64,000 nt of DNA from Candidatus Levyibacteriota bacterium (GCA_027459745.1 DAIDHL010000006.1:19578-83577); one strand, 5' to 3'. Positions 9,708-46,954 are shown, counted from the stretch's first letter. Notes: generated from the letters alone by a model not told the origin. Made by a program: numbers and translations.

Positions 9708-10679
9708 TTAAAACTTTAGTTTGTTAACTCGATTTACTAGTTTATTTGAATAAGTCCATTGAATAATTAAAGTTAAGCCTAAGATTAGGGTAAAGAAAAT
9801 GTACCAGGTGAGGTGAACTCTGTTTAAAAATGATGCGAAGAAAATAAGTAAAGAATAATGGACGAAATAAATGGAGTAAGAGTGTGAGCTGATAAATGAA
9901 AGAGGTCCGAGAAGATAATTGAACACTCCCCTTTCAGCAAGATAATACAAGCCCAGGCAGGTAATTAATCCATATGAAATTATAAATAGATTTGGAGGAT
10001 ATTTGTTATTAATAAATGATAAATCGTGATGTAAAACTAGCCCTTGAATAAACAGTCCAACGAAAATTAAAAACGCTAAAATTAAAATTGCGTTTCTTAA
10101 TTTAGGTTTTATATCAGGTAGTATTAACATACTGGAAATTCCAGACAAACCCCAAAAATACCACATGATTAGTTTATAATTGACATTGAAATGAATGTAA
10201 AAGATAGCCAAGGCCAATAAAATATTAAGTACTATATATACTTTGAACAGAAAGAGGTTTTTGTTTTGTAGATATTTAATTACAGGTAATAAAACAGCTA
10301 ATTCAATCATCAATAATACCAGCCAATCGATATCAATACCACCTATTACCACCACACTTTGCCAAATATAATTAAAGCTTAAGGCGTGATTTACAGCCCA
10401 GTAGATTGCAAAGAAAAATAACATGAAAATCCAATAAGGTATTAGCAACCTTGGCAGGCGTTTCTTTAAGTAGACAGAAAAGTCATTTAGAGTCTTAATT
10501 CTATCTTTGATGAAGAACACATATCCTGCACAAAAAACGAACATTGGTACTGCAAATTGACTCCAGTTCCAGATGAAAAGTGCGATTTTATCACCACCAA
10601 TAAAATAGTAGCTAGTATGAATTAGAATCATGGCAACAGTGGCTATACCTCTTAACAAATCTATTGATTGATTGCGCAT
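9708..10679 (-). CDS. Acyltransferase-3 family (OafA-like) integral membrane protein
   Basis: Start MRNQSIDLLRGIATVAMILIHT typical of the Acyl_transf_3 N-terminus; about 10 TM helices. Confidence 0.45.
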   Translation of the reverse strand: MRNQSIDLLRGIATVAMILIHTSYYFIGGDKIALFIWNWSQFAVPMFVFCAGYVFFIKDRIKTLNDFSVYLKKRLPRLLIPYWIFMLFFFAIYWAVNHALSFNYIWQSVVVIGGIDIDWLVLLMIELAVLLPVIKYLQNKNLFLFKVYIVLNILLALAIFYIHFNVNYKLIMWYFWGLSGISSMLILPDIKPKLRNAILILAFLIFVGLFIQGLVLHHDLSFINNKYPPNLFIISYGLITCLGLYYLAERGVFNYLLGPLSFISSHSYSIYFVHYSLLIFFASFLNRVHLTWYIFFTLILGLTLIIQWTYSNKLVNRVNKLKF

Positions 10680-15334: not shown

Positions 15335-16366
15335 ATGGAACATATAGTTAAAACAGTTTGTACAATTGGACCTGCTTCGGAGAAACCAGAAGTTTTGGAA
15401 GAACTGGTTAAAAATGGCATGGATATTGCACGTATGAATTTCTCTCATGCCACTTATGAAGAATTTAATAATCGAAAAAAATTAATTACACAGTTTAATA
15501 AAAAATATAACAAGGACGTTAAAATTCTTTTAGACTTACAAGGACCACGTATGCGAGTAGGGGTATTACCAGGAGATGGAATAGTCTTAGTCGAAGGTGA
15601 GACTAAGGTCTTTACTACTAATAAAGATAACACTGATGCCATTTTTATTAACGATCCATATCTACATAATGATATTCAAATTAATCACCCTATATTTCTT
15701 ACCAACGGTGAAATGGAATTATTAGTTACTGATATAAAAGGTACTGAGATTACTGCTAAAGTAATTCGCGGTGGTACTTTATACTCAAGAAAAGGTGTAA
15801 ATATCCCAGAGACTAATTTGACTACTAGAGGTTTGACTGATAAAGATAAAAGAGACGTATTATTTGGTGTCGAGCAGGAAGTGGATATGATTGCCATGTC
15901 GTTTGTTAAAGATGCAGAGGATATTGAGAATTTGCGATCGTTAATTAACAATCCAAAGATTAAAATCTGTTCCAAAATTGAGATTAAACAAGCCATTAAT
16001 CATCTAGATGAATTGATCCAGGCTTCCGATACTGTAATGGTCGCACGTGGAGATTTGGGAATTGAATTGCCGATTGAAGAATTGCCAATTTTGCAAAAAG
16101 AAATTATAAACTTGTGCAAAAGATATAATACCCCAAGCATTGTAGCCACACAAATGTTGATGTCAATGGTAAATCAGTCACGCCCGACTAGAGCAGAAGT
16201 CTCAGATGTTGCTAATGCAGTATTCGATGGAGCAAGCGCTGTTATGTTATCAGATGAATCTGCTTTTGGAAAATATCCTGTTGAGTCATTTAAAACTTTG
16301 CAAAAGATTGCTTACAGAGCAGAAGAGTATATAGAAAATCAGAACCGTAGAATTCCGCTAGTTTAA
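15335..16366 (+). CDS. pyk: Pyruvate kinase, short form lacking the C-terminal allosteric domain
   Basis: CTIGPAS, MDIARMNFSH, LLDLQGPRMRVG, MVARGDLGIELP motifs; 343 aa versus about 470 for canonical PK. Confidence 0.85.
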   Translation: MEHIVKTVCTIGPASEKPEVLEELVKNGMDIARMNFSHATYEEFNNRKKLITQFNKKYNKDVKILLDLQGPRMRVGVLPGDGIVLVEGETKVFTTNKDNTDAIFINDPYLHNDIQINHPIFLTNGEMELLVTDIKGTEITAKVIRGGTLYSRKGVNIPETNLTTRGLTDKDKRDVLFGVEQEVDMIAMSFVKDAEDIENLRSLINNPKIKICSKIEIKQAINHLDELIQASDTVMVARGDLGIELPIEELPILQKEIINLCKRYNTPSIVATQMLMSMVNQSRPTRAEVSDVANAVFDGASAVMLSDESAFGKYPVESFKTLQKIAYRAEEYIENQNRRIPLV

Positions 16367-23329: not shown

Positions 23330-26300
23330 TTAGCTTTTAAGGCTTAAGACAATAGAGTTGTCATTGCGAAACCAGTAATAGTAAACTACTGGGATAAAAA
23401 ATAACATGATTGTTCCGGAAAAAGCTAAACCTGCAATTATGGCTCCTCCTAATCCTTGCCATAAAGGATCAGACAGTGTGATGGGTATTAAACCGACGAT
23501 AGTAGCAAAAGAAGTTAAAGCGATAGGTTCCAGTCTGCTGGAAGCAGCATCTGAGACTGCTTCTATATGATTCATGCCAATGCGATAATTCTGGTTAATT
23601 TTGTCTACAATAAGAATGGAATTTTTAACTACTATACCAAACAAAGCCAAAACTCCAATCAGTGCAGGGAAAGACAAAGGAGTATGAGTTATAGCAAAGA
23701 TAATAAACACTCCCGCAATAGACAATGGAATGACCAACATAACAATTAAGGCTTTACGGAAGGAACCGAACTGTACAACCATCGTGATAATAATGAGTAA
23801 AAAGGATAACAACATAGCTTCTAAAATTGAAGTAACTGAATCTTGATTAGTTTGATTAACCCCGCCTGTTGACCAAGAATAACCTGTTGGTAAATCCAAG
23901 CCATTATTGGCATAATCCGACAATTTCTGATTGGCTTCACTAACAGAGTATCCTGCCTGCACTGAAGCTGTGACTGAAATTGTTCGTTGCCCACCTTCTC
24001 GAGTAATTAACGTAGGATTAGTTTGCAAAGTTAAATGACCCAGTGAGAGTAAAGGTACATCCCCTTTTGAAGTTGGAATATTTATACTACTAATTTGGTC
24101 CACGAACTCTTCATTATTCGTCATGCGAAGAGTAATATCCATTGTATTGTTCCCTCCCACATCAGAGAGACGGATATCATTGGCTTTCATACCGCTGGAA
24201 AACAAACGGATCCACATACCCAGCTGATCAATGGTCAAATTATAGTTTGCCATCTTAGCCTGATCTGGAACAAAAACAATTTTACTGGTGCCTGGCTTAA
24301 TTGATTTATCAATATTAGTTAAACCCGGCTGTTTATGAAGAAATGACTCAACTTTGTTAGCATACGCATCTAAAACAGTTAAGTCATCCCCAAATAATTT
24401 AATCTGCACATCAGCTCCCGCAGGGGGACCACTGCTTTCTTCTACCACTTGTAAGGTTCCAGCTGTATAGTGAGCGAACTTATCACGCATTTGTTGAGCT
24501 AATTGTATTGATCCTATTTTCCTTTCTGATTTGGGAGGTAGAACTAATGAAAAAGAGGCGTAATTACTCCCAGACCCTCCGCCACCAAAGCCTCCACTGG
24601 CTTGTGTGCCCACGTCCAGAGTGACATATTCAAGACCTTTAGTTTGCTTAAGCTGGTTTAATATTTTTAATGCCTCTTTGGTAGTTGTTTGCTGGTTTGT
24701 ACCGGCTGGCATTTCCAGGTTCATAAAGAAAGCATCCTGATCAGTGTTAGGAAAAAACTCATTGCGTACAAAACCAAGAGGTAAAAGAATATACGAAAAC
24801 AGAGAGAAGATAATAACCATAATTAAAATTCTTTTTCTCAATTTGGCCGAGGCTAAAATATCATGCATCAGTCCTTTATATCGCTCAGATATTTCATCAA
24901 TGCGGAAAACACCATGGTTGAAATATTCAGGCAGACGAGAGACAAACTTATGATCCTTAAGGCGTTTTTTGATCGCCAGTTTAGATTTTACGAAGATGAG
25001 TGTCCAGGTAAGATAAGCAACTAATAAAAAAGCAACCAACGCTATAAACTCAAATATAAATATTTTTCCTTTGGGGAGTATGGAGAATAATATAAGAACC
25101 ACTATTACTGTGGCTATGATCTTGGTGGCCATTTTCACCCGGTTTGGTATGTCGGGCTTGAATATTATTATTAATAAAGGGAGAGTAATAAAAATAGCTA
25201 CTAAATAAGAACCAAGTAAAGTAGATGAAACTACAATTGGAATAGCCTTAATAAAATCACCAATAATTCCTGTGGCCAATAATAATGGCAAAAAAGCCCA
25301 TACGGTTGTGATGGTAGTGGTAGTAATTGCCGAGAGAAAGTCTCTCCAAACCAGTAGCGCTGTTTGGTGGGGAGTGAATCTCCCAGTTCGATAATAGACC
25401 GACATAGCAGATATGACTACAATAGTGTCGTCAACCAACAGTCCCAAAGATAGCAATAAAGAAAAGATAGCAATAAAAGATAGGGGAATACCCGTAATAT
25501 TCATCATGATAAAGGTGAATAAAAAAGTTAAGGGAGTTGATAATAAAGCGATTATGGCCTGGCGTAATCCGACAAAAATAAACAAAGTGATAAAAACCAG
25601 TAAAACAGTAATTGAAAAATCACGATAAAGATCACTAAATTGCTGGTCAATCATCTCAGAAGTATTCATTTCACTGGTTACACTAAATTCATTGTTATAT
25701 TGTTTGACTGTGTCATTTACTACTTTCTGTACATCACCAACTGACTGATCAATACTGGCGGCGTCTGTCTTGTAAACATTAAAAGTCACTCCACGCCGGG
25801 GTGTTGAATTGCTTTGAGCAAAAAATGATTGATATTGGTTAGGTTGTGAGCGCTGATAAGCATTCGCTATGCTTGCTAGTGGTACTGGTTTGTTATTGAT
25901 GTTAAGCATCAAATTTCTCACAGTATCTACATTGGTAATTTCAGAATTGATAGTAAACGAAAATACAGATTTGTCTGTTTGAACCGTGCCGGCTGGATAG
26001 GAGCTGACGGCGCTATTTATAAGCTGGGAGATTTGAGCTGGGTTCAGACCATAAGTAGTAATCGCGGTAGGTTTAATTACCACTTGTATACCTTGGGTAT
26101 CTAGTCCGGAAGTACTTACTTTACTAACAGTTGAAACATTCTTGATGTTATTGCTTAGAATTTGGGCAAATCGACTCAGACTAGCATCATCTGTTTTAGT
26201 AGTTACAACAAATGTCCACACAGGAACATTTTGGAAGTCAACTTTCTGCACGCTAGACTTTTGAACAGCTGATGGTAAGCCTGACACATTGTTTACAGCT

Positions 26301-26686
26301 GACTGAACATCAGTCTGAGCTTTATCAGGGTCTACACCATCGTTAAATTGGACTTCAACTACAGATGAAGAGTCCTGTGAAGAAGAAGTGACTGTTTTTA
26401 CATTAGCTAATCCCATAACCGCATTTTCAACCGGGATGGTAACCAGTGATTCTACGTCTTGAGGGCCAGCACCAGGATAAACTGTAGAAATAATAACAAT
26501 AGGAATATTAATATTAGGATTAAGAACACGAGGAATACTCAGTAAACTAAAAATTCCACCTAATAAAAGTAGCAAAATTGTCATGACCACCAAACGAGGA
26601 TTGTTGTAGTATTTAGCTACTAACATTTTGTCCAATCGAGGATCAAATTTAAGTTGTGAAATGTAAGATGCTAGTTTTCTGGCCAT
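23330..26686 (-). CDS. RND-superfamily efflux permease (AcrB/HAE1-like)
   Basis: 1118 aa, 12-TM architecture with two large periplasmic loops; N-terminal PIVIISTVYPGAGPQDVESLVTIPVEN block. Confidence 0.8.
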   Translation of the reverse strand: MARKLASYISQLKFDPRLDKMLVAKYYNNPRLVVMTILLLLLGGIFSLLSIPRVLNPNINIPIVIISTVYPGAGPQDVESLVTIPVENAVMGLANVKTVTSSSQDSSSVVEVQFNDGVDPDKAQTDVQSAVNNVSGLPSAVQKSSVQKVDFQNVPVWTFVVTTKTDDASLSRFAQILSNNIKNVSTVSKVSTSGLDTQGIQVVIKPTAITTYGLNPAQISQLINSAVSSYPAGTVQTDKSVFSFTINSEITNVDTVRNLMLNINNKPVPLASIANAYQRSQPNQYQSFFAQSNSTPRRGVTFNVYKTDAASIDQSVGDVQKVVNDTVKQYNNEFSVTSEMNTSEMIDQQFSDLYRDFSITVLLVFITLFIFVGLRQAIIALLSTPLTFLFTFIMMNITGIPLSFIAIFSLLLSLGLLVDDTIVVISAMSVYYRTGRFTPHQTALLVWRDFLSAITTTTITTVWAFLPLLLATGIIGDFIKAIPIVVSSTLLGSYLVAIFITLPLLIIIFKPDIPNRVKMATKIIATVIVVLILFSILPKGKIFIFEFIALVAFLLVAYLTWTLIFVKSKLAIKKRLKDHKFVSRLPEYFNHGVFRIDEISERYKGLMHDILASAKLRKRILIMVIIFSLFSYILLPLGFVRNEFFPNTDQDAFFMNLEMPAGTNQQTTTKEALKILNQLKQTKGLEYVTLDVGTQASGGFGGGGSGSNYASFSLVLPPKSERKIGSIQLAQQMRDKFAHYTAGTLQVVEESSGPPAGADVQIKLFGDDLTVLDAYANKVESFLHKQPGLTNIDKSIKPGTSKIVFVPDQAKMANYNLTIDQLGMWIRLFSSGMKANDIRLSDVGGNNTMDITLRMTNNEEFVDQISSINIPTSKGDVPLLSLGHLTLQTNPTLITREGGQRTISVTASVQAGYSVSEANQKLSDYANNGLDLPTGYSWSTGGVNQTNQDSVTSILEAMLLSFLLIIITMVVQFGSFRKALIVMLVIPLSIAGVFIIFAITHTPLSFPALIGVLALFGIVVKNSILIVDKINQNYRIGMNHIEAVSDAASSRLEPIALTSFATIVGLIPITLSDPLWQGLGGAIIAGLAFSGTIMLFFIPVVYYYWFRNDNSIVLSLKS

Positions 26687-26761
26687 ATTGTTACTAAGGA
26701 AGCATTAAGTTAAATTATTAATTTCTAATAAGACTTGCAGGATTACCAATTTATTAGATAC

Positions 26762-28201
26762 TCATTTACTCACGCTCACTCTGTCTCCATTGACAACATT
26801 GCGATTTAGGATGACAGTATCACCATCATTTAGTCCACTTTGAACGCTGACAAATCTGCCATAAACATCCCCTAACTGGACATTTACGCTTTGTGCTTTT
26901 CCATCCACAATTCTAAAAACATATGCGCTGTTTTCTGTTTGATATATAGCATCCAGAGGCACATAAGGATCAACCGAACTTGTATTGGGAATACCAATCG
27001 GTACATCAACTGTAATGTAGGAGGAATTGCTTAAATAATACGACGAGCTGGCAGGCAATACATACATTACGCTATATAGATTGCCGTCAGTTGCATCACG
27101 GGAAATGTAGTCAGGGGTTTGTTTTAGAGTTTGGTTATTTACATGAATAATCGAAGGTTGGACTCGTGAGATGGTAGAGGCAAGGTTAGATGGTACCTGA
27201 ACAATGGCTTTGACTGATTGTTCATTGCACGATATAGAAGCTAAAGGCGTACCTGAATTCACCTGTTGTCCAAAGGTAACATATATTTTATCAACTACTC
27301 CACTACAAGGAGAAGCCGGATACATCAATGATTGATTTACATATGCTAATTGAAGTTGCAATTCGCTAATTTCTTTATTTATATCCAATGTTTTGGCTTG
27401 AATATCTAATTGTTTTAAAGTAATGTCACGTTGATTATATTGTAGCTGAGAGTATGGTTGATTAGCATCTGCCTGGTAGGCTAGTTGTCTTTGCTGGCTA
27501 TTGAGTTGATTAATAGTTCCCTGGTATTGTGCCTGTAGTTGCTGTGTCTGTAAGATAGCAGCGGAGTTTGTGGCATCATATGTCTGTAGATTTTGCAGGT
27601 TTTGATTAATAGTATTAAGAATTGATTGATTCTGATTAATTAAGTTAGCAGATTCAGTGGCTGAATCAGCTGCTAAAGTACGGAGTTGATCATTGTTGGA
27701 CTGGGTATTATTGGCCAGATCAACCTGCTTGGCTATTAGATCTTTTTGTTCTTGGTAAGTATCCTGGGTAATTTCATTCTGTTTTTGGGCAATTTGAGTT
27801 TGAATATCAGCTGAGCTTCCTCCCTGATAATTTGAGGACAAATAGATTAGATTGGTGCCTTTGCTTACTGATTGGCCTTCGGTTACATTAATTGTTTGTA
27901 CAATACCATTTGCCTGAGCGTTGATAGATACGACGCCTGATTTTTGAATTTGTCCCTGTAACTGTTCCAATGGCGCAGCGCCAATTTGATAGGTTTGTAC
28001 CTGTATAAGAGGGGTGTTCTGTTGAGTAACTTTTGCTGGTGTGGTGAGAATATCGCCTATAAAAATAAGCAAAAACAAGACAAAAAGTGTTAAAAAGAAA
28101 GCACGAAAAGGATACTTTTTGATTAGTCTCGATGTTTTTCTGTATGGCAATTTTTTTACCCATGAAAAACCTCTTTTTTGTAACTGGCTGAAAAATGGCA
28201 T
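26762..28201 (-). CDS. Efflux adaptor / membrane-fusion protein (HlyD-like) partnering the RND pump
   Basis: N-terminal TM, long Gln-rich coiled-coil, C-terminal beta-barrel-like region; directly upstream of the RND gene. Confidence 0.6.
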   Translation of the reverse strand: MPFFSQLQKRGFSWVKKLPYRKTSRLIKKYPFRAFFLTLFVLFLLIFIGDILTTPAKVTQQNTPLIQVQTYQIGAAPLEQLQGQIQKSGVVSINAQANGIVQTINVTEGQSVSKGTNLIYLSSNYQGGSSADIQTQIAQKQNEITQDTYQEQKDLIAKQVDLANNTQSNNDQLRTLAADSATESANLINQNQSILNTINQNLQNLQTYDATNSAAILQTQQLQAQYQGTINQLNSQQRQLAYQADANQPYSQLQYNQRDITLKQLDIQAKTLDINKEISELQLQLAYVNQSLMYPASPCSGVVDKIYVTFGQQVNSGTPLASISCNEQSVKAIVQVPSNLASTISRVQPSIIHVNNQTLKQTPDYISRDATDGNLYSVMYVLPASSSYYLSNSSYITVDVPIGIPNTSSVDPYVPLDAIYQTENSAYVFRIVDGKAQSVNVQLGDVYGRFVSVQSGLNDGDTVILNRNVVNGDRVSVSK

Positions 28202-29219: not shown

Positions 29220-30179
29220 ATGCGTCATTTTTTCTATATTTTATGTCTTGCTCTAACTGTGGCTATTTTTTCCGCCATAGTTTGGTACTTTTTGCCTGAA
29301 GGGAAATTAACCTTAAATAGATACATCTCCCCCCTACCTTCTTTTTTAACAATTACTCACAATGATCAGGTAAGAATGTTAGATTTGTGGCTGCCAGATC
29401 TGGAAAATAAGCAAGCTTCTGCTGCCGACAAATATACCGCTCAATCAATTCTAATGTATGATTTATCAGACAATAAGACATTGATGACCAAGAATATAAA
29501 TTTAAAATTACCTATGGCGTCTTTAACCAAGTTGATGACAGTTATAATTGCCTTAGAAAATCCCAAAGCAGATGATAGGTATATTGTTGCCCAGTCTGAT
29601 TTAGTTGGCGAAGATAGTATGGGTTTGAGCTCTGGTGAGGTTGTATCTTTAAATGATTTGTTAGAAGGTATTTTCTTAACTTCTGCCAATGATGCGGCAG
29701 AAACAATAGCCAGTAATTACCCTGGGGGCAGAAGCGCATTTATTATAGCCATGAATAAAAAAGCACAAGCCTTAGGCTTAACAGATACGAATTTTACTAA
29801 TCCTACTGGTCTGGAAGGAGACGGGAATCAATATACTACTGCTTATGATTTGCTAGTGATTAGTAAATATTTGTTACAAAATCATCCGCAGATTTTATCT
29901 ATTTCCTCTCAATCTTCTTACACAATTCCTGCTACCAGTGAACATAAGGAATTTGATTTAAACAATGAAGTTAATCTGATTACGTCTTATCCGGGGGTTG
30001 AGGGACTTAAGGATGGGTATACTCCTCAAGCAGGCTGGTGTTTAATTACCTATTTAAAATATGATAATCAGCAAATCTTGGGTATTATATTAAATAGTCA
30101 GGATAGGCGTGGGGAAATGAGAAAGTTATTAGACTACTCACTGGAAAAACTTAATATCACTCCCCCTCTTCATGGGTAA
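29220..30179 (+). CDS. D-alanyl-D-alanine carboxypeptidase (S11, PBP5/DacA-like)
   Basis: SxxK (ASLTKLMT), SxN (LTSANDAAE) and KTG-like blocks; N-terminal TM. Confidence 0.75.
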   Translation: MRHFFYILCLALTVAIFSAIVWYFLPEGKLTLNRYISPLPSFLTITHNDQVRMLDLWLPDLENKQASAADKYTAQSILMYDLSDNKTLMTKNINLKLPMASLTKLMTVIIALENPKADDRYIVAQSDLVGEDSMGLSSGEVVSLNDLLEGIFLTSANDAAETIASNYPGGRSAFIIAMNKKAQALGLTDTNFTNPTGLEGDGNQYTTAYDLLVISKYLLQNHPQILSISSQSSYTIPATSEHKEFDLNNEVNLITSYPGVEGLKDGYTPQAGWCLITYLKYDNQQILGIILNSQDRRGEMRKLLDYSLEKLNITPPLHG

Positions 30180-30276
30180 AAACTTGAAAAGTAGGAATAA
30201 TTATTTTCATATTTTAGTAAATATTATTAAGAGATTGCCCAAAGTAAGATTATGCGGTAAAATATGCAGTGTACAT

Positions 30277-30361
30277 GCCGCGGTGGTGGAATGGTAGACA
30301 CAAGGGCCTTAAGAGCCCTCGACTATAATGGTTGTGAGAGTTCGAGTCTCTCCCGCGGCAC
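30277..30361 (+). tRNA. tRNA-Leu (anticodon TAA), long variable arm
   Basis: Hand-folded cloverleaf: acceptor GCCGCGG/CCGCGGC, anticodon stem AGGGC/GCCCT with loop CTTAAGA, T-arm GAGAG-TTCGAGT-CTCTC. Confidence 0.8.
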
Positions 30362-30424
30362 CCCACACATGTTCCTCAGCTACAAGCTCGTAATCGCTCA
30401 TAAATATTGCTATAATATGCCTAT

Positions 30425-30498
30425 CGGGGACTAGCTCAGTTGGCTAGAGCGCGCGGTTTGGGACCGTGAGGTCGAAGGTTCAAGTCCTTTGTCCCCGA
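30425..30498 (+). tRNA. tRNA-Pro (anticodon TGG)
   Basis: Acceptor CGGGGAC/GTCCCCG, D-arm GCTC-AGTTGGCTA-GAGC, anticodon loop TTTGGGA, T-loop TTCAAGT. Confidence 0.8.
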
Positions 30499-30618
30499 CA
30501 CAATTTCAAAAAATCTTAGCATCAAGAGATGTACTAAGATTTAAAATTATTTATCAAATACAAAATATAAGGTATAAAATTTCGTGGGAGATAAATTAAA
30601 AAAATTTGAAATTACAAT

Positions 30619-31284
30619 CTAATTAGTCTTTCCAGTTTTTATAATTTCGAAAAATTCACAATAAGTTCCTTTTCCACTCATTGCTCCGCGATAACGATTG
30701 AGACCTTTGATGGCTTCGTCATAAGCTATGTTTGCTAATTGCGAACTGTGTTTTCTTAATGCTTCAAGTTTGGTTTCGATCACCTCTGATATATCCTCAA
30801 CATAATTAAAAGTTGTTAACGGTGTCCATACTTCATAAGATAAAACCGTGGATACATTCCAAGGTTGTCCTTTAACTTCTTGATAGCTATTCCTTCCTGC
30901 TCGGTCTATTGCTTCTTTAACCAGCTCAAATGTTTTGGAATGATCACGGTGCGTTTCGTTTTGGTGAGGTAAGTAAACTATATCCGGTTTTTTCTCACGG
31001 ATTATCTCCATCAATTTATTTACAGTTCTGGTTTCATATTCAATATAACCATCAGCTAATTCGAGATATATTGTTTCATGTATACCAAGAACACTTTTGG
31101 CATCATTAATCTCCCTTTTACGTATATCTGACATTTGCTGTTTGGTATATTTCAAGTCTCCTGCATCGCCAAAAGTTAAATATACAACATTAACTATATG
31201 TCCCTTCTTAACATGATTAGCTATACTGCCGCCGCAGCCAATAATATCGTCATCAGGATGTGGAGCAAAGATTAGAATATTCAT
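30619..31284 (-). CDS. PIG-L / LmbE-family N-acetylglucosaminyl deacetylase (MshB/BshB-like)
   Basis: IFAPHPDDDIIGCGG (AHPDDE motif) and HRDH motif; 221 aa. Confidence 0.8.
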   Translation of the reverse strand: MNILIFAPHPDDDIIGCGGSIANHVKKGHIVNVVYLTFGDAGDLKYTKQQMSDIRKREINDAKSVLGIHETIYLELADGYIEYETRTVNKLMEIIREKKPDIVYLPHQNETHRDHSKTFELVKEAIDRAGRNSYQEVKGQPWNVSTVLSYEVWTPLTTFNYVEDISEVIETKLEALRKHSSQLANIAYDEAIKGLNRYRGAMSGKGTYCEFFEIIKTGKTN

Positions 31285-31326
31285 ACTATTTTTATGGATA
31301 AGCCTTATTCCTAAATACTTGTACCT

Positions 31327-32559
31327 TTAACCTAAACTTTTATATAATCTTATCATTTTATTGGCTGTGTTGGTCCATGTCAAATCTGCAACTTTATTTC
31401 TGATTCCCTCGCTGACTTTTTGATGGGCTTGTTCATCAATTAGCAAATGCTCGATTTGAGATGCTAAAAGTAAGGGGTTGTTCACAGTGGTAATTAATTT
31501 CTCCCTCTGTTTGTCTATTATACTAGCAATTCCGGCAACGTTTGAGGTTATAACGGGCGTACCGCATGCCATCGCTTCCAAAGCAGCTATGCCGAAAGAT
31601 TCATAATGAGATGGCATAATCACTACTTCTGCTGCGTTGTAATAATAAGGTAGTTCGTCTTGTGTTTTTTGTCCGACAAATTCTACAATGTTGGGAATAT
31701 GTAGTATATGACGGAGTTTGTTTAGTTTTGCCATTTCAGTTTTAATGGGTATATTTTTTTGTGTTATGTCTCCCCCGGCAATTAACAGCTTTACAGGTAA
31801 GTTTGGGTTTTTGCTCACCATAATCTTCATGGCATAAATCAATGCATCGATTCCCTTAAGTGGTTCAATTCGTCCTACAAATAATACAATTTTTTTCACA
31901 TGTTCATGGATTTTATCCTTGGCAACCTGTTGATCAATAGGATGGAAATGTTCGACATCAATTCCAGGAGGAATGACAACCAATTTTTCTTTTGGACAAT
32001 CATATAGATATTGTGTGTATAAGGCGTCACTAATGCTGGAGGTTATAACTTTATCAACATCTTGAATCAACTTAAATTCTGCTGTTATGCGCTCCACATT
32101 TTCTTCTTCTCTTTCGCTTCTGGCAACTAGATTTTTCATCAGAGCCAATGTGTGAAAGGACATGAAGATGGGAAGCTTTTTGTCAGCGTTGATTTTTAAG
32201 CCGATTAAACCTGATAGATAATAATGGCAATGGAGAATATTGTAGGATAGGTTTTCTTGCTCTATAAATTTCTTATAACTGTCAACAAATTCATCGATGT
32301 AGTTTAACAACAGTTTTTTATCAATTTGTTTTTCTTCACCAGCAGTTAGATGAATAACTCGTAAATTCGGGTTTAATTGTACGATTCTTTCATCGTTTTC
32401 GCCCTGACAACGTGTGAAGATATCAACTTGGCATCCTTTTTGTGTTAGTTCTTTTGCTAGCTCTAAAACATACACGTTCATTCCACCTGTTTCCTTGCCT
32501 TCTTGCGAAGCTAGTGGACAAGTATGATAAGAGATCATGGCAATACGTTTTTGTTTCAT
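31327..32559 (-). CDS. GT4 retaining glycosyltransferase with an MshA-type N-terminal signature
   Basis: MISYHTCPLASQEGKETGGMNVYVLELAKEL matches the SxHTSPL...GGMNVYV block of MshA (UDP-GlcNAc: inositol-phosphate GlcNAc transferase); C-terminal GT-B E...E motifs. Confidence 0.7.
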   Translation of the reverse strand: MKQKRIAMISYHTCPLASQEGKETGGMNVYVLELAKELTQKGCQVDIFTRCQGENDERIVQLNPNLRVIHLTAGEEKQIDKKLLLNYIDEFVDSYKKFIEQENLSYNILHCHYYLSGLIGLKINADKKLPIFMSFHTLALMKNLVARSEREEENVERITAEFKLIQDVDKVITSSISDALYTQYLYDCPKEKLVVIPPGIDVEHFHPIDQQVAKDKIHEHVKKIVLFVGRIEPLKGIDALIYAMKIMVSKNPNLPVKLLIAGGDITQKNIPIKTEMAKLNKLRHILHIPNIVEFVGQKTQDELPYYYNAAEVVIMPSHYESFGIAALEAMACGTPVITSNVAGIASIIDKQREKLITTVNNPLLLASQIEHLLIDEQAHQKVSEGIRNKVADLTWTNTANKMIRLYKSLG

Positions 32560-32595
32560 AACTTACAGATTATAGCACGAGGCTTGTAGAATGTT

Positions 32596-32625
32596 GTCAT
32601 TCCAACGAAAGTTGGAATCCAGACA
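32596..32625. promoter_or_regulatory. Stable intercistronic stem-loop TGTC-ATTCCAAC-gaaa-GTTGGAAT-ccAGACA (GNRA tetraloop) between the phosphatase and GT4 genes; shares the TTGTCATTCC motif with the enolase leader
   Basis: Read directly from the sequence. Confidence 0.5.
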
Positions 32626-32658
32626 TAGCAAACTAATTGATCAAATTTTTTGCAAGTA

Positions 32659-33288
32659 TTAAATGTTTGGTTTAAAGACGCCTATGACCGATTGAATTTG
32701 TTCGTGTTCATAAATTACTTTATATACTTCACAATGATGGACGTATTCGCCTGTTTTATTAAGTAGATTGTCTAAATTTAATTCTAGTTGGTTATGTAAT
32801 AATTTTAAACTCATAATTGGGTCGCCATGTGAAACAGCAATAATGTTTTCACCATTGTGATCTTGATGTTGCTGCTGAAGAAAACTATTTATTCTATTGC
32901 CTACTTCGTCTAAAGATTCTGCATCGAGTCGATTATTTCCATTAGCAAAAATTTCGAAATTAATTGAGTTTATATAAGCAAATGTTTGGCCTTGTAATTC
33001 CGATCGTACTTCCAAAAGGTTATCTGAGTAGATAGTTGGTAAATTTAATTTCTGTCCAATAATACGTGCGGTTTGTTTAGTTCTTTCTAAGGGACTCGAA
33101 TAAATTGCATTGATGTTTTGAGTTTGTAAAAAATCAGCAGCTTGTTCTGCTTGTTGTTTACCTAAATCTGAAAGTGGATAACCTGGCATTCTGCCGTACC
33201 AGATCTGTTCAGGATTTTGCACATCTCCATGACGGATAAAGTAAAATACTGTCGGCATACTTTTAGTATACAGCATTAAATAGAACAA
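32659..33288 (-). CDS. Histidine-phosphatase superfamily (phosphoglycerate-mutase-like) phosphatase
   Basis: FIRHGD catalytic RHG motif; downstream SHG; 209 aa. Confidence 0.65.
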   Translation of the reverse strand: MFYLMLYTKSMPTVFYFIRHGDVQNPEQIWYGRMPGYPLSDLGKQQAEQAADFLQTQNINAIYSSPLERTKQTARIIGQKLNLPTIYSDNLLEVRSELQGQTFAYINSINFEIFANGNNRLDAESLDEVGNRINSFLQQQHQDHNGENIIAVSHGDPIMSLKLLHNQLELNLDNLLNKTGEYVHHCEVYKVIYEHEQIQSVIGVFKPNI

Positions 33289-33325
33289 AAATCAAATGAT
33301 CTACTTCTTTTGGAGATTGCCAGAA

Positions 33326-35095
33326 TCAATAGATATCAAATTTTTCCAAGAGTTTTTTATTTCCCTCGATTTGGTAATGTAAGAGTTCAGAATAAACACC
33401 AGGTTTGTTGGCTAACTTTTGTGGTGTGCCGCTTTCCATAATCTTTCCTTCATCGACAACCAAAATTTTATCTACATTTTGAATAGTGGAAAAACGATGG
33501 GCAATTATGATTACTAGTTTATTCTTCATCAAATTTTCCAAAGCATCCTGAACTTCCTTCTCTGATTTTGCATCGAGAGAAGAAGTTGCCTCATCTAAAA
33601 TTAATATAGGAGCATTTTTCAGTATAGCTCTAGCTATTTGAATTCTTTGTTTTTGTCCTCCTGATAATCTGATCCCTCTTTCCCCCACTTCGCTTTCGAT
33701 GCCTTTTGGTAATTTCATGACAAAATCATATGCATAAGCAGATTTTAAAGCATTGATAATCTCTTCTTCCGTGGAGTCTGGTCTGCCATAAGCCACATTC
33801 TCCCGGATAGATGTTGAAAATAATTCATTTTCCTGAAAAACTAAAGATATATTTTGCCTTACAAATTTATGGTCCAGATCCTTGTAGTTCTTATTATTTA
33901 TATACACACTCCCTCCGGTTGGTTGATAAAATTTTAGAATTAAATTAACAATTGTTGATTTGCCAGCGCCGCTATGTCCCACCAAGGCCACTGATTCATG
34001 TGAATCAATTTTAAAGGAAACGTCTTTCAGTACATTCTCGTTTTCATTGTAGCTAAAGTCAACATTCTTGAATTCAATTTGCGGTTTTGTAACTTTGTTA
34101 TATTTCTCTTTTTTGTCGTAGAATTCTACTGATTTTAAATTCAATATTTCCAGGTATTCTTTAGATCCAGCTTCGGCCATTTGTAATTGAGTTAAAATAA
34201 AAGACATGGCAAATAAGGGAATTCTGGCTTGGTTTACAAGCTGTAAAATTAACACCATTTCACCTATGGTTAATTTGGAAACATAAGTCTCATAGAAAAC
34301 TATTATATTAATAATAAAAAGAATGATATTGAGAGATAAACCCCGACAAAAATCAAATATATGAAAAGTCCTGCTTTGTCTGGCATAGATCTTATTTAAT
34401 TCGCTTAATTGACCTGAAACTGTTTCATACTCGGCCTTTTCACTGGTAAAACTCTTTACCAAACGGATATTACTGATTACTTCCTGTATCCTTCCCCGGC
34501 TGCGGTCGTCAATAGCGTTTTTTTGTACTTCTAATTTGCCCCACCTGATTGTCGAGTAATAAGAGATTCCCAGATAAATTGGGAAAAGAATGAAAGTAAA
34601 AAAAGCTATTGGTAGGTTATAATAACCAAGGACTAAGACAGTAAAAATGCTTTGTAAAAGAGTTGGCAAGATAAAATTGGTTAAAGAATTGGAAAAGCCC
34701 TGTGTGGCGACGATTCCCCGCGTTAACTGATTGACAATCTTACCGGAAATTTCCGAATCAAAATATGATTGAGGTAAAGTTAAAACTTTATCGTAGAATT
34801 TTTCGGTTAAGAATTGACGCAATCGTCCGGCGAAATGATCACCCAAACGATCAGAGATTACCTGGGCAATGAGACTGAGTAGATTTATTCCAAAAGCGAT
34901 GACTACTAAAGTAATTAGCAACGAGAGATTACCTCCTTGATGGGTAATTTTTAAAGTAATTTGATCGACTATGAATTTTGATAGGATAGGTCCCACCAAA
35001 GCTAAAGCTGCAGAGGTTAAAATAAGTAAAGCAATAGTGATGACCAGCTTGTGCAAAGGCTTGGACAAACGAACTATAGAAAAAAGATTTTTCAT
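33326..35095 (-). CDS. ABC exporter, fused permease-ATPase (MsbA/ABCB-like)
   Basis: 6-TM N-terminal domain; Walker A GHSGAGKST, signature LSGGQKQRIQIARA, Walker B ILILDEATSSLD. Confidence 0.85.
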   Translation of the reverse strand: MKNLFSIVRLSKPLHKLVITIALLILTSAALALVGPILSKFIVDQITLKITHQGGNLSLLITLVVIAFGINLLSLIAQVISDRLGDHFAGRLRQFLTEKFYDKVLTLPQSYFDSEISGKIVNQLTRGIVATQGFSNSLTNFILPTLLQSIFTVLVLGYYNLPIAFFTFILFPIYLGISYYSTIRWGKLEVQKNAIDDRSRGRIQEVISNIRLVKSFTSEKAEYETVSGQLSELNKIYARQSRTFHIFDFCRGLSLNIILFIINIIVFYETYVSKLTIGEMVLILQLVNQARIPLFAMSFILTQLQMAEAGSKEYLEILNLKSVEFYDKKEKYNKVTKPQIEFKNVDFSYNENENVLKDVSFKIDSHESVALVGHSGAGKSTIVNLILKFYQPTGGSVYINNKNYKDLDHKFVRQNISLVFQENELFSTSIRENVAYGRPDSTEEEIINALKSAYAYDFVMKLPKGIESEVGERGIRLSGGQKQRIQIARAILKNAPILILDEATSSLDAKSEKEVQDALENLMKNKLVIIIAHRFSTIQNVDKILVVDEGKIMESGTPQKLANKPGVYSELLHYQIEGNKKLLEKFDIY

Positions 35096-35152
35096 TATGT
35101 TTATTTTACACTACAATAGTGATTTTAGTCACAATGGAATTGATATTTAAGA

Positions 35153-35887
35153 TTATTTCAGAGCAGAAAGATCTTTTTTATCATGCCATAACAGATGCTT
35201 TATCTCTCCAATAATAGTATTGGCCCAAATGGCATAACCAAAATCTGAAGGATGAAACCCATCTTCTGATAAAACTTCCGGATAAGATCGAGTGAAAATT
35301 CTACTTGTTTCATAAAGATCAACTAGTCTTACGTCACAAGCTTTTGCTTGTTTACGGATTATGTTATTCACTCTTGATAATATAACCTTTCCTGCCAGTC
35401 GCATGTGTCTGGGTACTACAGGTGCATTTGTAAGATCAGGAATAGTATTTATGACAATATCGGCGGTAGTATTGGTTTTTAAATTAGAAAGTAAGTGAAA
35501 TAATTCCTTTTCAAATTCTTTAAAAGATGTTTTTTTGATAATATCATTTGTTCCGACTGAGATAGTGATCAAATCAGGTTTCAAGGCAATTGTTTTGTCG
35601 AGCTGATTTTCAATAACATCATTAACTTTGGCAAAAGCCTTGCCCAGGTTGTGATATTGGGTATTCTTTAATGTTAATTTTAGTTGTTGATAGATTATGC
35701 CAGTATACGAACGATCAGGATGGCTAGCTCCTAATCCTTCCACTGAACTGTCCCCTATTGCTACATAAACAAAATTTTTACCTCTATGACGAGAAAAAAT
35801 AAATGAAAATAGCTTATTAAATCCCTGTATAGATTTAAAAACAATATTTTGCATTTTTACTAAGTTTAAGCTAGAATATTTTTTCAT
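35153..35887 (-). CDS. SGNH/GDSL-family hydrolase
   Basis: Block I GDSS (VAIGDSSVEG), block III GTND, block V DGFHP. Confidence 0.7.
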   Translation of the reverse strand: MKKYSSLNLVKMQNIVFKSIQGFNKLFSFIFSRHRGKNFVYVAIGDSSVEGLGASHPDRSYTGIIYQQLKLTLKNTQYHNLGKAFAKVNDVIENQLDKTIALKPDLITISVGTNDIIKKTSFKEFEKELFHLLSNLKTNTTADIVINTIPDLTNAPVVPRHMRLAGKVILSRVNNIIRKQAKACDVRLVDLYETSRIFTRSYPEVLSEDGFHPSDFGYAIWANTIIGEIKHLLWHDKKDLSALK

Positions 35888-37094: not shown

Positions 37095-38246
37095 TTAGGA
37101 GTTAATTTTTCTATAAACATAAAAAAAGTCTTTGTTATATCCATGTAGATAAGCGTAACCTCCATTTTGCATAGCTTTAAGAAGTGGATAATAATCATAT
37201 TTACCTCCCCCCATACTATCGTAAATTATGTAACGTACCCAAAATGGATTAATATCTAGCTGAATAGCATTTACAGCACCAGCTGATTGTAATGCTTTGG
37301 CAAGTGTAGCAGGAACCAACGAATTGCCAACTGCATATATAAGGTTCCCATCATTGGTAATACCTATCCCCGATCTCCAGGTATACATAGTATCTGTGGT
37401 TGTTCTGCCCCACGTATCAGTATTGGCATTATCAAACGAAGTTATATGGCCTGCTTGAATCAAAAAAGGGCCGTTTTGTCTGGCAGCAATAATGTCTTTG
37501 GGCAGAGTTTGTCCTGTGTAGTTTATAATTTGTGCTTGTCCGTTAGAGTGAATCAATAAAGTAGCCATGTTTTTTTTCAAGGGAACATAAGTTTTGCCAT
37601 CTAATATCATTCCATAATGACCATCCGCAGCCATAAATCCCCCATTAAAAACTGCAACTAAAGTGTTGCCTTGCTGTATATTAGATGGAACATAGCCTTT
37701 GCCATAAATCCCATAAACCCCACCTGGGTAATATGTACCTGCTTGCAAACCCAAAGCTAATTCTTTCATATTCATTTTAACGAGTGAGACGATGGCGTAG
37801 TTTCGTGAATTGTCTGGTCGGATAAATGTTCTGGCAATTACTACTTTTTGAGGTACAGTCGATGTTTGAATTGGCTCCCAGTTTCCTTCTGCTGGTAATG
37901 GTGAAAAACTTGCTGTGGGCGTTATAGGCGAGAGTTTCATTCCATTCTGATCAAGAGCTATAGTTGGTGCCAATAAAGCATTTTCAAATGCTGGGTTAAA
38001 AATATTCGCAGAAGGTTTTTGGTAACTTGATTCTATTTTATTAAGATTGTCGCTACTATTAAAATACCATGACTCCAGTGCTAATGTTTGTGAGTTTCCT
38101 ATCAGTGGACGCAAAATATTATCTGCCATTTGAGCAGCAAAGCCATTATTGAAATTGCTCAAAAGTATATACCCGACAATAAAAAGAGTAACAGCGACAG
38201 CGATTAGCGTTAATCGTTTATTTTGAATTCGATTATTTAAGAACAT
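37095..38246 (-). CDS. Membrane-anchored protein with a possible phosphodiester-glycosidase (NAGPA/DUF2233)-like C-terminal domain
   Basis: N-terminal TM; C-terminal NGGFM...GPFLIQAGH...IGITNDGNLIYAVG pattern; tentative. Confidence 0.35.
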   Translation of the reverse strand: MFLNNRIQNKRLTLIAVAVTLFIVGYILLSNFNNGFAAQMADNILRPLIGNSQTLALESWYFNSSDNLNKIESSYQKPSANIFNPAFENALLAPTIALDQNGMKLSPITPTASFSPLPAEGNWEPIQTSTVPQKVVIARTFIRPDNSRNYAIVSLVKMNMKELALGLQAGTYYPGGVYGIYGKGYVPSNIQQGNTLVAVFNGGFMAADGHYGMILDGKTYVPLKKNMATLLIHSNGQAQIINYTGQTLPKDIIAARQNGPFLIQAGHITSFDNANTDTWGRTTTDTMYTWRSGIGITNDGNLIYAVGNSLVPATLAKALQSAGAVNAIQLDINPFWVRYIIYDSMGGGKYDYYPLLKAMQNGGYAYLHGYNKDFFYVYRKINS

Positions 38247-44856: not shown

Positions 44857-45432
44857 TTAGCCTTCTGATCTCTTATCAACTTCAAATTCAGCTTCACCAT
44901 TTTTTATTCCTAGTTTAGTTGTAATATAGCCGACAAAAGATGGTTGAGGACAATCAGCGTTAAGACGGCTCTGTTCCTCTGAAAACTCTTTAAGCTTATT
45001 TGTTAACACAAGCTCAGAATCTTTTCCCCAGCAATCAAGAGTTCTAAAAATTCGTACTCTATTATCTAAGGAGTCATAGCTACTTCCTGCTTTGTGGTGA
45101 ATTGCTGATTTTTGATTTGGGTTTAGAAATGTCATTAAACCACTGAGTGCAGCTACAATTAATGCAATAATGCCTGAAATGTTATGGGAGCCATCAAACT
45201 GAGCGAATGACTTCACAGCTACGATTCCTGAAAGGACTGTTGTAGGAACGCCCAGTAGTAGATGGAAGAAACCCCACATTGAGCTATCATTATAATGGCT
45301 TTTAGCACTGAATCGAGCAGATTCTTCAATTCTTAATGCCTCTTTTATAATTTCAGTCTTTGTTTTTGAAACTACTACTTCTGTTGCAGTTGTTTTTTTT
45401 CTTTTAGCCATATGCAGGAAAATAGTCTCCAA
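44857..45432 (-). CDS. 2-TM effector-like protein (SLATT-like), downstream partner of the nucleotidyltransferase
   Basis: 191 aa; two TM helices (FFHLLLGVPTTVLSGIVAV, ISGIIALIVAALSGLMTFL) followed by a charged C-terminal domain; 29-nt overlap with the upstream gene. Confidence 0.4.
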   Translation of the reverse strand: METIFLHMAKRKKTTATEVVVSKTKTEIIKEALRIEESARFSAKSHYNDSSMWGFFHLLLGVPTTVLSGIVAVKSFAQFDGSHNISGIIALIVAALSGLMTFLNPNQKSAIHHKAGSSYDSLDNRVRIFRTLDCWGKDSELVLTNKLKEFSEEQSRLNADCPQPSFVGYITTKLGIKNGEAEFEVDKRSEG

Positions 45433-46288
45433 ATATTAATCTCCATTGTTCTATTGCTTGCCTAATATACCCTCTATTAGCAAAATCCTCTGCTCTTATT
45501 GCTCTATTATATGCAGTTTCAAATTTTGTTACTGCATTATCTATTTTTTCAGGGGAATCTATGTAGTAGCCTATATCGCCACCATATCCAGCAGGATCAG
45601 GATTTTGTTTAGAAATGAGGGTTCTTCCTTTATCAAAGAAATATCTTGTGCCAGTGGAAAAATCACTTATGACAACATATTTCATTATTTCTAAAGCAAG
45701 TGCTTCTAAATGAAATGAATGAAAAAAACTTCCCTTTGTTCTATTCCATGCTTTTATCATTTTTATTAGTGGAACTAATTTATATTCATGTGAAGCATTG
45801 GATTCGGATATAAGCTCGACGTGTTTCGTGGGATCGGTAGCTATCCAGTTCTGTTTGATAGAGTTAGGAATTAAATATCCGCCTCCCTGGCGATGAAATC
45901 CCGGCACAACATCTATCAAAAAGTCATTAAAATGTATTGTTACTGCTTGTCCATCTCTTGATATGTGAGGCGTTCTGGTGTACGTACGTAATAGAGTACG
46001 TTTTACTAAATCCAATAGTCCAGCTTGCCCACCATTTTTACCGTTGTCATAGTTATAGAAGTATTTATTATCCAGTACTACAAAAACGTCTATATCTGCT
46101 TCTTGGAGTGGTGCAATCATTGTATGACGCTTATACGATCCTGTAAGAAAGGAGTCTTGTACGTCCATATTTGCTTCAATTGCTTCTCTAACATTGCTTT
46201 GTCTTGTTGAGACTATAGAAGATTGTGGTTCTGTTATTTCTAAATTTCTCTTAAATTGGAGGAATGATTCGTTTATAGTAATAGCCAT
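45404..46288 (-). CDS. SMODS / CD-NTase-like nucleotidyltransferase (pol-beta superfamily)
   Basis: TGSYKRHTMIAPLQEADIDVFVVLD (GS-x9-DxD) and a downstream acidic residue in DFLIDVVPG; start taken at MAITINES (46288); the ORF track extends to 46321. Confidence 0.55.
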   Translation of the reverse strand: MAITINESFLQFKRNLEITEPQSSIVSTRQSNVREAIEANMDVQDSFLTGSYKRHTMIAPLQEADIDVFVVLDNKYFYNYDNGKNGGQAGLLDLVKRTLLRTYTRTPHISRDGQAVTIHFNDFLIDVVPGFHRQGGGYLIPNSIKQNWIATDPTKHVELISESNASHEYKLVPLIKMIKAWNRTKGSFFHSFHLEALALEIMKYVVISDFSTGTRYFFDKGRTLISKQNPDPAGYGGDIGYYIDSPEKIDNAVTKFETAYNRAIRAEDFANRGYIRQAIEQWRLIFGDYFPAYG

Positions 46289-46321
46289 TTGGCAATGATT
46301 GTAGCACCATAAGATATGCAA

Positions 46322-46954
46322 CTACAATGGTTGTGATTGCCAATCACGTTTTTTTATCCAATGATATAAATTTGCTTCCGTTGTCCCATATCGTTTTGCA
46401 ATAAATCGTTGTGTGCTTCCGTTTGCCAACAAGGCTTTGATTTCCACTTCATATTGATCTAGCTTGCTTTTCCCTACGCCTTTTGGACGTCCCAGCTTGA
46501 TTCCAGCGAGTTTCTTTGCTTGCAGTGCCTCAATAGTGCGCTTGCTGATTAAATCGCGTTCAATTTCGCTTGCCATTGAGAAACACATTGCCACAAGTTT
46601 GCTTTGAATAGAGTTATTCAGCTCCCAACTCCCTTTTATAGCAAAAACATTTATTTGCTTTTGTGTAGCCACAGATAAAATTTCCATAATTTCAAGCATA
46701 GACCTTCCCAGCCTTGAGAGTTCGGAGACAATAAGATTATCTCCCTTTTGCATAGTTTCCAGCAATTCTGCAATCTTCCGCTTTCGCCACGACACTTTCC
46801 CTGATATTTGTTCAGAAACAAACTCCACATGTCCGAGTTGCTTTGTATTTGCCAGTTCCAAAATAGCTGATTTATTCTTCTCTAAGTCTTGCAAGGCAGT
46901 TGAAACTCGAAGGTAAGCATAGGTTTTAGGCTGTGAATTAAATAAAAACGTCAT
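46322..46954 (-). CDS. Small serine recombinase (resolvase/invertase, Hin/Gin-like) with a C-terminal HTH
   Basis: YAYLRVSTALQD catalytic-Ser block, SRLGRS, GRPKG plus HTH (GSTQRFIAKRYGTTEANLYHWIKK). Confidence 0.85.
   Translation of the reverse strand: MTFLFNSQPKTYAYLRVSTALQDLEKNKSAILELANTKQLGHVEFVSEQISGKVSWRKRKIAELLETMQKGDNLIVSELSRLGRSMLEIMEILSVATQKQINVFAIKGSWELNNSIQSKLVAMCFSMASEIERDLISKRTIEALQAKKLAGIKLGRPKGVGKSKLDQYEVEIKALLANGSTQRFIAKRYGTTEANLYHWIKKRDWQSQPL

Follow-up and report, generated by a model that had tools for sequence, protein, structure and literature searches.

A minus-strand gene cluster was examined in a 64,000-nucleotide stretch of DNA from a Candidatus Levyibacteriota bacterium (GCA_027459745.1 DAIDHL010000006.1:19578-83577), the whole of which is referred to here as the window. 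The cluster centers on genes for a retaining glycosyltransferase of family 4 (GT4), a histidine phosphatase (HP) and a zinc deacetylase of the PIG-L/LmbE family (DAC), and the question addressed is what pathway, if any, the three proteins may share. An earlier note made from the sequence alone had grouped these genes with an adjacent ABC exporter in a three-step pathway to a glucosamine (GlcN) conjugate. The cluster itself is real, as all four open reading frames (ORFs) were recovered on the minus strand.

Gene content and the GT4-HP pairing

The cluster is part of a co-directional run of five minus-strand genes at 30619-35887, in the order GDSL hydrolase, ABC exporter, HP, GT4 and DAC, with gaps of 37-99 nt. 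The run stops at two tRNA genes on the opposite strand. The features are as follows.

30276-30499, plus strand: tRNA-Leu(TAA) and tRNA-Pro(TGG), at which the gene run ends (ARAGORN)
30619-31284, minus strand: DAC, PIG-L/LmbE-family zinc deacetylase, 221 aa (Pfam PF02585, 113.7 bits, cutoff 28.2)
31327-32559, minus strand: GT4 retaining glycosyltransferase, 410 aa (Glycos_transf_1, 127.6 bits; Glyco_transf_4, 77.1 bits)
32659-33288, minus strand: HP, histidine phosphatase, 209 aa from TTG (His_Phos_1, PF00300, 114.9 bits, cutoff 21.7)
33326-35095, minus strand: ABCB-type half-transporter exporter, 589 aa (ABC_membrane, 97.4 bits; ABC_tran, 121.3 bits)
35153-35887, minus strand: GDSL/SGNH hydrolase, first gene of the run (Lipase_GDSL_2, 85.4 bits)

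The Pfam domain scores of the cluster proteins were far over their thresholds, and by motif inspection the catalytic motifs of all core genes are intact. The G+C content of the window is about 35%. The closest relatives of its GT4 are 52-85% identical and come from assemblies of Levyibacteriota, Microgenomates and other Patescibacteria, which makes the previous description of the organism as similar to the candidate phyla radiation a reasonable one. An exact-protein lookup of the window GT4 returned no record.

The genomic neighborhood was compared over 80 related loci from species-representative genomes (individual loci carry L numbers), 33 of which form the high-identity, Patescibacteria-type group of the window. 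The commonest neighbor of GT4 was a gene of the HP family, present less than 1 kb from the GT4 orthologue in 20 of these 33 loci. It was also found near GT4 in L081-L083, and lies immediately upstream of it in L081 and L082, which carry the 85% and 63% relatives, respectively. Three arrangements were observed: HP is downstream of GT4 with overlapping frames (L001-L014, L023 and L075), precedes it on the same strand (the window, L081 and L082) or is divergent (L018-L025). The HP genes beside GT4 belong to two subtypes of about 165 aa and 205 aa, and the RHG motif is present in representatives of both. In L017, the gap between GT4 and DAC was searched and no decayed HP was found. The GT4-HP pairing is conserved across the Patescibacteria clade, and its survival through rearrangement makes a good case for HP as the cognate phosphatase of GT4. 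Operon conservation, which had been suggested as a check, was upheld for the adjacency of HP and GT4 but not for the exporter, whose linkage is confined to close relatives.

The likelier start of the window HP is the ATG at 33258, from which the protein begins MPTVFYFIRHG. Its PF00300 domain, with the R19-H20-G21 and S153-H154-G155 motifs, assigns it to branch 1 of the histidine phosphatases. No NCBIfam equivalog cutoff was reached by this protein, the top match being archaeal dPGM with 87.8 bits versus a cutoff of 225.

A scan of the region for promoters and terminators gave signals close to background level. A perfect extended -10 element (TGCTATAAT) is located within 32560-32600 on the minus strand, in the 99-nt gap between HP and GT4, and ends 12 nt ahead of the GT4 start codon. 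The best full promoter-like match of the region (11/12) is at 31383-31355, inside the 3' end of GT4 and just upstream of DAC.

Family relationships and active site of the glycosyltransferase

The best NCBIfam match of the window GT4 was the MshA model (TIGR03449), which it matched over its full length with 298 bits without reaching the equivalog cutoff of 462.5; the model for sucrose-phosphate synthase (SPS) came next with 124 bits. Two controls were scored alongside. CgMshA gave 719 bits (718.9) on the MshA model. TeSPS (Tll1590, PDB 6KIH) is a proven SPS (PMC7264703), and its best NCBIfam match was likewise MshA, with 288 bits compared to 145 on the SPS model; a further member of the TeSPS clade gave 267 bits on the MshA model. 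The earlier note had treated the N-terminal peptide SYHTCPLASQEGKETGGMNVYV, residues 10-31 of GT4, as an MshA signature. TeSPS reads SVHGDPAADVGHESAGGQNIYV at the same place, and the motif is not specific to MshA. Since TeSPS scores 288 bits, a best match to MshA at about 300 bits together with this motif signifies a wider superclade of GT4 enzymes with phosphorylated acceptors and not MshA. In comparisons with PDB sequences, the window GT4 scored 207 bits on CgMshA, to which it is about 31% identical, and 184 bits on TeSPS. It was under the cutoff of the BshA model (TIGR03999; 95.2 versus 273.7 bits) and of the NCBIfam GlcNAc-PG synthase model (64 versus 480 bits). Because a proven SPS best-matches the MshA model, the label "D-inositol-3-phosphate glycosyltransferase", carried in JGI by many proteins of the superclade, is unreliable. 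As an annotation trap, this pipeline label is no evidence of mycothiol or inositol chemistry.

Phylogeny, by which the MshA-type assignment was to be judged, did not discriminate between MshA and SPS affinity, and the window GT4 joined neither of the two. A distance-based neighbor-joining tree (172 sequences, 300 bootstraps) was constructed from 139 full-length cluster representatives among 150, 28 locus sequences, the window GT4 and PDB anchors numbering three; with one MshA and two SPS anchors and the quartet rooted on HoSPS, the window sequence grouped with CgMshA in 110 bootstraps (37%) and with TeSPS in 72 (24%), while CgMshA and TeSPS grouped together in 118 (39%). An earlier, small tree of 33 sequences with three anchors recovered the Patescibacteria GT4 clade as monophyletic in 200/200 bootstraps, and joined the family to MshA with only 52% bootstrap support. 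The AlphaFold model of the window GT4 (pLDDT 84) superposed on closed MshA (3C4Q) with a TM score of 0.84 at 2.9 Å and on TeSPS (6KIH) with 0.86 at 2.8 Å, and the modeled fold would place the protein equally near the two. As judged from these comparisons, the window GT4 is part of a Patescibacteria-specific clade of the MshA/TeSPS-like phospho-acceptor superclade and is a member of neither MshA, SPS nor BshA.

A separate GT4 group was observed in Chloroflexota (Anaerolineae and Thermoflexus loci L032-L080, for example L035:5007-6218 and L050:5518-6738), whose members score 365-413 bits on the MshA model. The Anaerolineae group is distinct from the Patescibacteria clade and falls with CgMshA in 74-79% of bootstraps; outside Actinobacteria, these proteins may be true MshA-like enzymes. 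Their genes neighbor those for an NYN-domain protein, a uridine kinase and secreted proteins without known function, which give no hint of a pathway.

The active site of the window GT4 was then compared with those of MshA and TeSPS. The motifs G229-RIEPLK-G236 and E320-x7-E328 are intact, and the GT-B GT4 fold of MshA is indicated by the conserved R230, K235, E320 and E328 and by the TM score of 0.84 to 3C4Q. The donor-side residues R231, G263, G319 and E324 described for CgMshA (PMC2628429) have R230, G262, G323 and E328 as their counterparts in the window protein. In 23 members of the Patescibacteria clade, the donor-side residues R230, K235, E320, G323 and E328 are invariant or nearly so. 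On the acceptor side, K78, Y110, T134 and R154 of CgMshA, which are reported by Vetting et al. 2008 to bind the acceptor phosphate, are matched by K81, Y113, T137 and R157. The Lys is conserved in 22/23 clade members and the Tyr, Thr and Arg in 23/23 each. T137 adjoins the catalytic H136. TeSPS has the Tyr and the Arg in common with the window protein and carries Arg and Ser at the other two positions.

In TeSPS, Gln51 of the GGQ loop contacts fructose and Pro332 of the E-P-F-G loop packs on the glucose ring (PMC7264703). The Gln51 position is M27 in the window GT4 and Met, Ile, Ala or Leu across the Patescibacteria clade, with Gln in 0/23; the Pro332 position is S321 in the window and Ser in 22/23, with Pro in 0/23. 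The clade that contains MshA has Met in 103/108 and Ser in 99/108 of its members at these positions, the TeSPS clade has Gln in 3/4 and Pro in 4/4, and HoSPS has both Gln and Pro. At both substrate contacts of SPS, the Patescibacteria clade shows the MshA state and lacks the SPS state. Among the informative columns of the acceptor domain, 13 lean toward MshA versus 6 toward TeSPS. We conclude that the window GT4 is predicted to take a phosphorylated acceptor in a pocket like that of MshA and, at the level of active-site residues, to work like MshA. Fructose-6-phosphate is an unlikely acceptor by the same residues.

A candidate pathway and its alternatives

DAC contains the catalytic motifs H9-P-D11-D12 and H112-R-D114-H115, in which the metal-binding H9/D11/D12 and H115 are separated by a spacer of 102 residues; the metal motif is invariant in 5 orthologues. 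These features are those of the LmbE superfamily, defined by an HXD1D2 + H metal-binding motif with a spacer of 97-148 residues, and all LmbE enzymes characterized so far act on substrates containing N-acetylglucosamine (GlcNAc) (PMC4101496). The best NCBIfam match of DAC was BshB1 (TIGR04001) with 130.5 bits, under the cutoff of 182.5; on the MshB model (TIGR03445) it gave 52.7 bits versus a cutoff of 224.35. Its family profile scored 120 bits on archaeal diacetylchitobiose deacetylase, 103 and 91 on BshB and 46 on MshB among PDB sequences. DAC is thus not MshB-like, and is an orthologue of neither MshB nor BshB1. The equivalent of BshB Arg53 is present as R55, whereas the malate-binding Arg109 of BshB is replaced by T111 in the window protein and by Ala in the consensus of the family. 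From its sequence, DAC is best described as a putative deacetylase of GlcNAc glycosides. GT4, HP and DAC follow one another with overlapping frames in L009 and L023, and L081 has the same HP-GT4-DAC order as the window with a 4-nt overlap of GT4 and DAC. The GT4-HP-DAC trios occur in different subclades of the GT4 tree.

A close DAC orthologue of 51% identity was seen on a 630-kb metagenome contig (L085:5980-8571), where a gene of the inositol-monophosphatase family and one for a ROK-family kinase or regulator are each about 1 kb away.

We propose that the HP, GT4 and DAC genes encode a short cytoplasmic route of glycosyl transfer, dephosphorylation and deacetylation to a soluble GlcN-X compound, a proposal that we regard as evenly balanced between true and false. 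In the first step, a small phosphorylated acceptor, its phosphate held by the Lys/Tyr/Thr/Arg site, would receive a hexosamine on one of its hydroxyls; GT4 would most likely draw GlcNAc from UDP-GlcNAc for this and retain the configuration. In the second, as suggested by the conserved gene pairing, HP would strip the acceptor phosphate and so render synthesis irreversible, with parallels in the synthesis of sucrose, trehalose, glucosylglycerate and mycothiol. In the third, which would be confined to some members of the clade, DAC as a zinc enzyme of LmbE type would turn GlcNAc-X into GlcN-X. Because the acceptor-side residues match those of MshA, 1L-myo-inositol-1-phosphate is the leading acceptor candidate; hexose or hexosamine 6-phosphate and 3-phosphoglycerate are less favored alternatives. 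The three-step logic is firmest for GT4 and HP and weaker for DAC. The sequential action of the three enzymes proposed in the earlier note is favored by the HP pairing in 20/33 loci, by the trios of L009 and L023 and by the phospho-acceptor site, but neither GT4 nor DAC is a true enzyme of mycothiol synthesis.

Additional gene linkage was noted on the donor side. In five loci (L029:3157-7242, L030, L031, L039 and L040), GlmS is followed by a NagB-like gene that abuts or overlaps the start of GT4; the NagB-like protein is divergent in sequence, with 130 bits versus a cutoff of 326. GlmS catalyzes the first step toward UDP-GlcNAc, and this linkage ties GT4 to amino-sugar metabolism.

The proposed route resembles parts of several known systems. 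As in the first three steps of mycothiol synthesis in Actinobacteria (MshA, MshA2 and MshB), a retaining GT4 with a phosphorylated acceptor would be followed by a phosphatase and an LmbE deacetylase in turn. The window GT4 is like MshA in fold, best NCBIfam model, donor-side and phosphate-site residues and the positions that distinguish MshA from SPS; it differs as a separate clade that falls under the MshA cutoff, and DAC is not MshB-like. The phosphatase of the window is moreover genetically explicit as a histidine phosphatase, and no inositol-phosphate synthase, MshC or MshD accompanies it in the window or the loci. TeSPS with sucrose-phosphate phosphatase is similar in that basic residues hold a phosphorylated acceptor and a dedicated phosphatase acts afterwards, but the window clade is without Gln51 and Pro332, and its partner is a histidine phosphatase, sometimes accompanied by a deacetylase, and not a HAD-type phosphatase. 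Bacillithiol synthesis by BshA and BshB has the pairing of GT4 and LmbE enzymes, and DAC has BshB1 as its best model and the Arg53 equivalent R55. BshA, in contrast, uses the non-phosphorylated malate and needs no phosphatase, the window GT4 reaches only 95 bits on its model, and DAC is under the BshB1 cutoff with Thr in place of the malate-binding Arg109. A precedent for the dephosphorylation of a glycosyl-phospho-acceptor by an enzyme of the HP fold is found in glucosylglycerate synthesis by GpgS and GpgP (Rv2419c, histidine-phosphatase superfamily), where GpgS belongs to another glycosyltransferase family, GT81. No GpgP-like structure was among the PDB matches of HP at E < 0.001.

Several observations weigh against the proposed route. 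The informative columns of the GT4 donor domain lean toward TeSPS over MshA by 11 to 6, and since this half is slightly closer to TeSPS, UDP-GlcNAc is at most a likely donor. The match at the phosphate site depends on the roles that we presume, in part from secondary papers (PMC7264703 and PMC2628429), for the four CgMshA residues. No inositol-phosphate synthase was found in the window or the 80 loci with an M. tuberculosis Ino1 sequence as the probe, and seven window ORFs of 335-430 aa, scanned with Pfam, gave none either; with a possibly inexact probe and local DNA only, this is a weak negative. A DAC-family gene is near GT4 in just 7/35 loci (the window, L081, L009, L012, L017, L023 and L027). 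In metagenome contigs, neither an MshA-like GT4 nor HP is found less than 6 kb from any of the six closest DAC orthologues, two of which adjoin other GT4 genes. Given these distributions, the deacetylase step may be optional, encoded elsewhere or unrelated.

Patescibacteria are thought to have almost no small-molecule biosynthesis. The proposed route, if true, would provide a defined biosynthetic product for ultra-small bacteria of mostly unknown metabolism, and it would identify small histidine phosphatases as an enzyme family for dephosphorylation after a glycosyl transfer of the MshA type. The mycothiol papers examined (2008-2026) name no gene for the MshA2 phosphatase step, and for this reason the HP family is a candidate to seek in Actinobacteria; gpm1/gpmA is located close to mshA in Mycobacterium and Corynebacterium. 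In its most specific form, the proposal would have many Patescibacteria make a GlcN-inositol-like pseudo-disaccharide with GT4, HP and the LmbE enzyme, HP would be the first enzyme of an MshA2-type step to be defined genetically, and a protein resembling cysteinyl-tRNA synthetase (CysRS) would lead on to a mycothiol-like thiol in some lineages; we consider this version improbable. The searchable literature contained no description of a GT4-HP-DAC module, and for Patescibacteria or Chloroflexota it yielded nothing relevant on such a pathway, on mycothiol or on inositol-phosphate synthase.

The foremost alternative is a route to a compatible solute or storage sugar, in which UDP-glucose and a sugar phosphate are converted by GT4 and HP into a neutral glycoside, for instance a sucrose-like or glucosyl-polyol compound, HP replaces the usual HAD phosphatase, and DAC is separate, serving for example GlcNAc or chitobiose salvage and adjacent in only a few genomes. 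This would agree with the similar distances of the window GT4 from TeSPS and MshA (184 versus 207 bits, TM 0.86 versus 0.84, a split tree) and with its TeSPS-leaning donor domain. It would also explain why DAC is missing near GT4 in most loci and has its closest orthologues elsewhere, and why the top structural relatives of DAC by sequence are catabolic chitobiose deacetylases. The Patescibacteria GT4 clade, however, has the MshA state in place of the SPS contacts Gln51 and Pro332, the DAC frame overlaps HP or GT4 in L009, L023 and L081, and the GlmS linkage suggests amino-sugar chemistry. We regard the compatible-solute route as unlikely, if with an appreciable chance of being correct.

Alternatively, the three genes could begin a mycothiol- or bacillithiol-like thiol pathway, in which the truncated CysRS-like protein of some relatives joins GlcN-X to cysteine. 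A CysRS homologue of about 390 aa (370-400 aa) without the anticodon-binding domain, an architecture like that of MshC, adjoins HP and GT4 in six loci (L018, L019, L021, L022, L024 and L025; L018:4109-5308, minus strand). It is named MshC by JGI and cysS by NCBI. The protein passed the cysS cutoff (439 versus 340 bits) but failed that of MshC (397 versus 485), and it is nearer to real CysRS structures (351, 340 and 317 bits) than to MshC (308 bits). The short form is common in Patescibacteria, and because it is the norm of the lineage, the protein is probably a housekeeping enzyme and is left with only a slight chance of acting like MshC. Since the six loci share a wider gene order, they are not independent evidence, and with the adjacency lying within this wider synteny the identification as MshC was rejected as the leading interpretation. 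The window has no CysRS-like gene, MshD or BshC, and searches of its 64 kb and of the 80 related loci gave no MshB, MshC, MshD or BshC. A thiol product is very improbable. Together with the missing inositol-phosphate synthase, these negatives leave neither the thiol nor the GlcN-phosphatidylinositol glycolipid of the earlier note with genetic support.

Chance neighborhood is equally doubtful. Patescibacteria genomes are gene-dense with short gaps, and the neighbors other than HP vary widely among the loci, as would be expected of unrelated genes packed in a compact genome. The HP family has one or a few copies per genome of about 1000 genes. Yet HP is near GT4 in 20/33 loci, in three arrangements and two subtypes, which is far beyond chance, and the DAC frame overlaps occur in independent subclades. 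The clustering of HP, GT4 and DAC exceeds chance.

Least probable is a PIG-A/PIG-L-type membrane glycolipid (GlcN-phosphatidylinositol or GlcN-phosphatidylglycerol) flipped by an MsbA-like ABC transporter. GT4 with PIG-L is the logic of the glycosylphosphatidylinositol anchor, and both the window and L081 have an adjoining exporter of lipid-flippase-like architecture. Such a route, however, leaves a soluble phosphatase with nothing to do, the nearest GT4 relatives use soluble sugar or cyclitol phosphates, the GlcNAc-PG synthase and MsbA models are missed by wide margins (64 versus 480 and 376 versus 602 bits) and the exporter adjacency is not conserved.

Neighboring genes and other features of the window

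The exporter scored 375.8 bits on the MsbA model (TIGR02203), short of the cutoff of 602, and is a generic ABCB-type protein. The only places where it adjoins the GT4 module are the window, its 85% relative L081, which has the same order, and L006, where it is divergent; its role as the pathway's exporter next door was not borne out by this distribution. The GDSL hydrolase is in the same position in L081 only. Both are probably mere neighbors of the module. The remaining neighbors of GT4 are mostly cell-envelope or housekeeping genes.

Further envelope and glycan genes were seen in the window: a NAGPA phosphodiester glycosidase (37095-38246, minus strand), a Polysacc_deac_1 deacetylase (59554-60624, plus strand), an Acyl_transf_3 acyltransferase (9708-10679, minus strand) and an S11 D-Ala-D-Ala carboxypeptidase (29220-30179, plus strand). 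The NAGPA, DedA and AI-2E genes are syntenic between the window and L081. Upstream of the cluster region, at 23330-28201 on the minus strand, two ORFs were judged by eye from their translations, a large one of 1118 aa as RND-type transporter-like and one of 479 aa as membrane-fusion-like.

The pyruvate kinase gene at 15335-16366 (plus strand, 343 aa) gave a match to the barrel domain only (341 bits), and the usual C-terminal domain is apparently missing. A SMODS-domain nucleotidyltransferase (45404-46321, minus strand, 96 bits) is flanked by small ORFs at 44857-45432 and 46322-46954, and the segment 44857-46954 on the minus strand could be a CBASS-like defense module.

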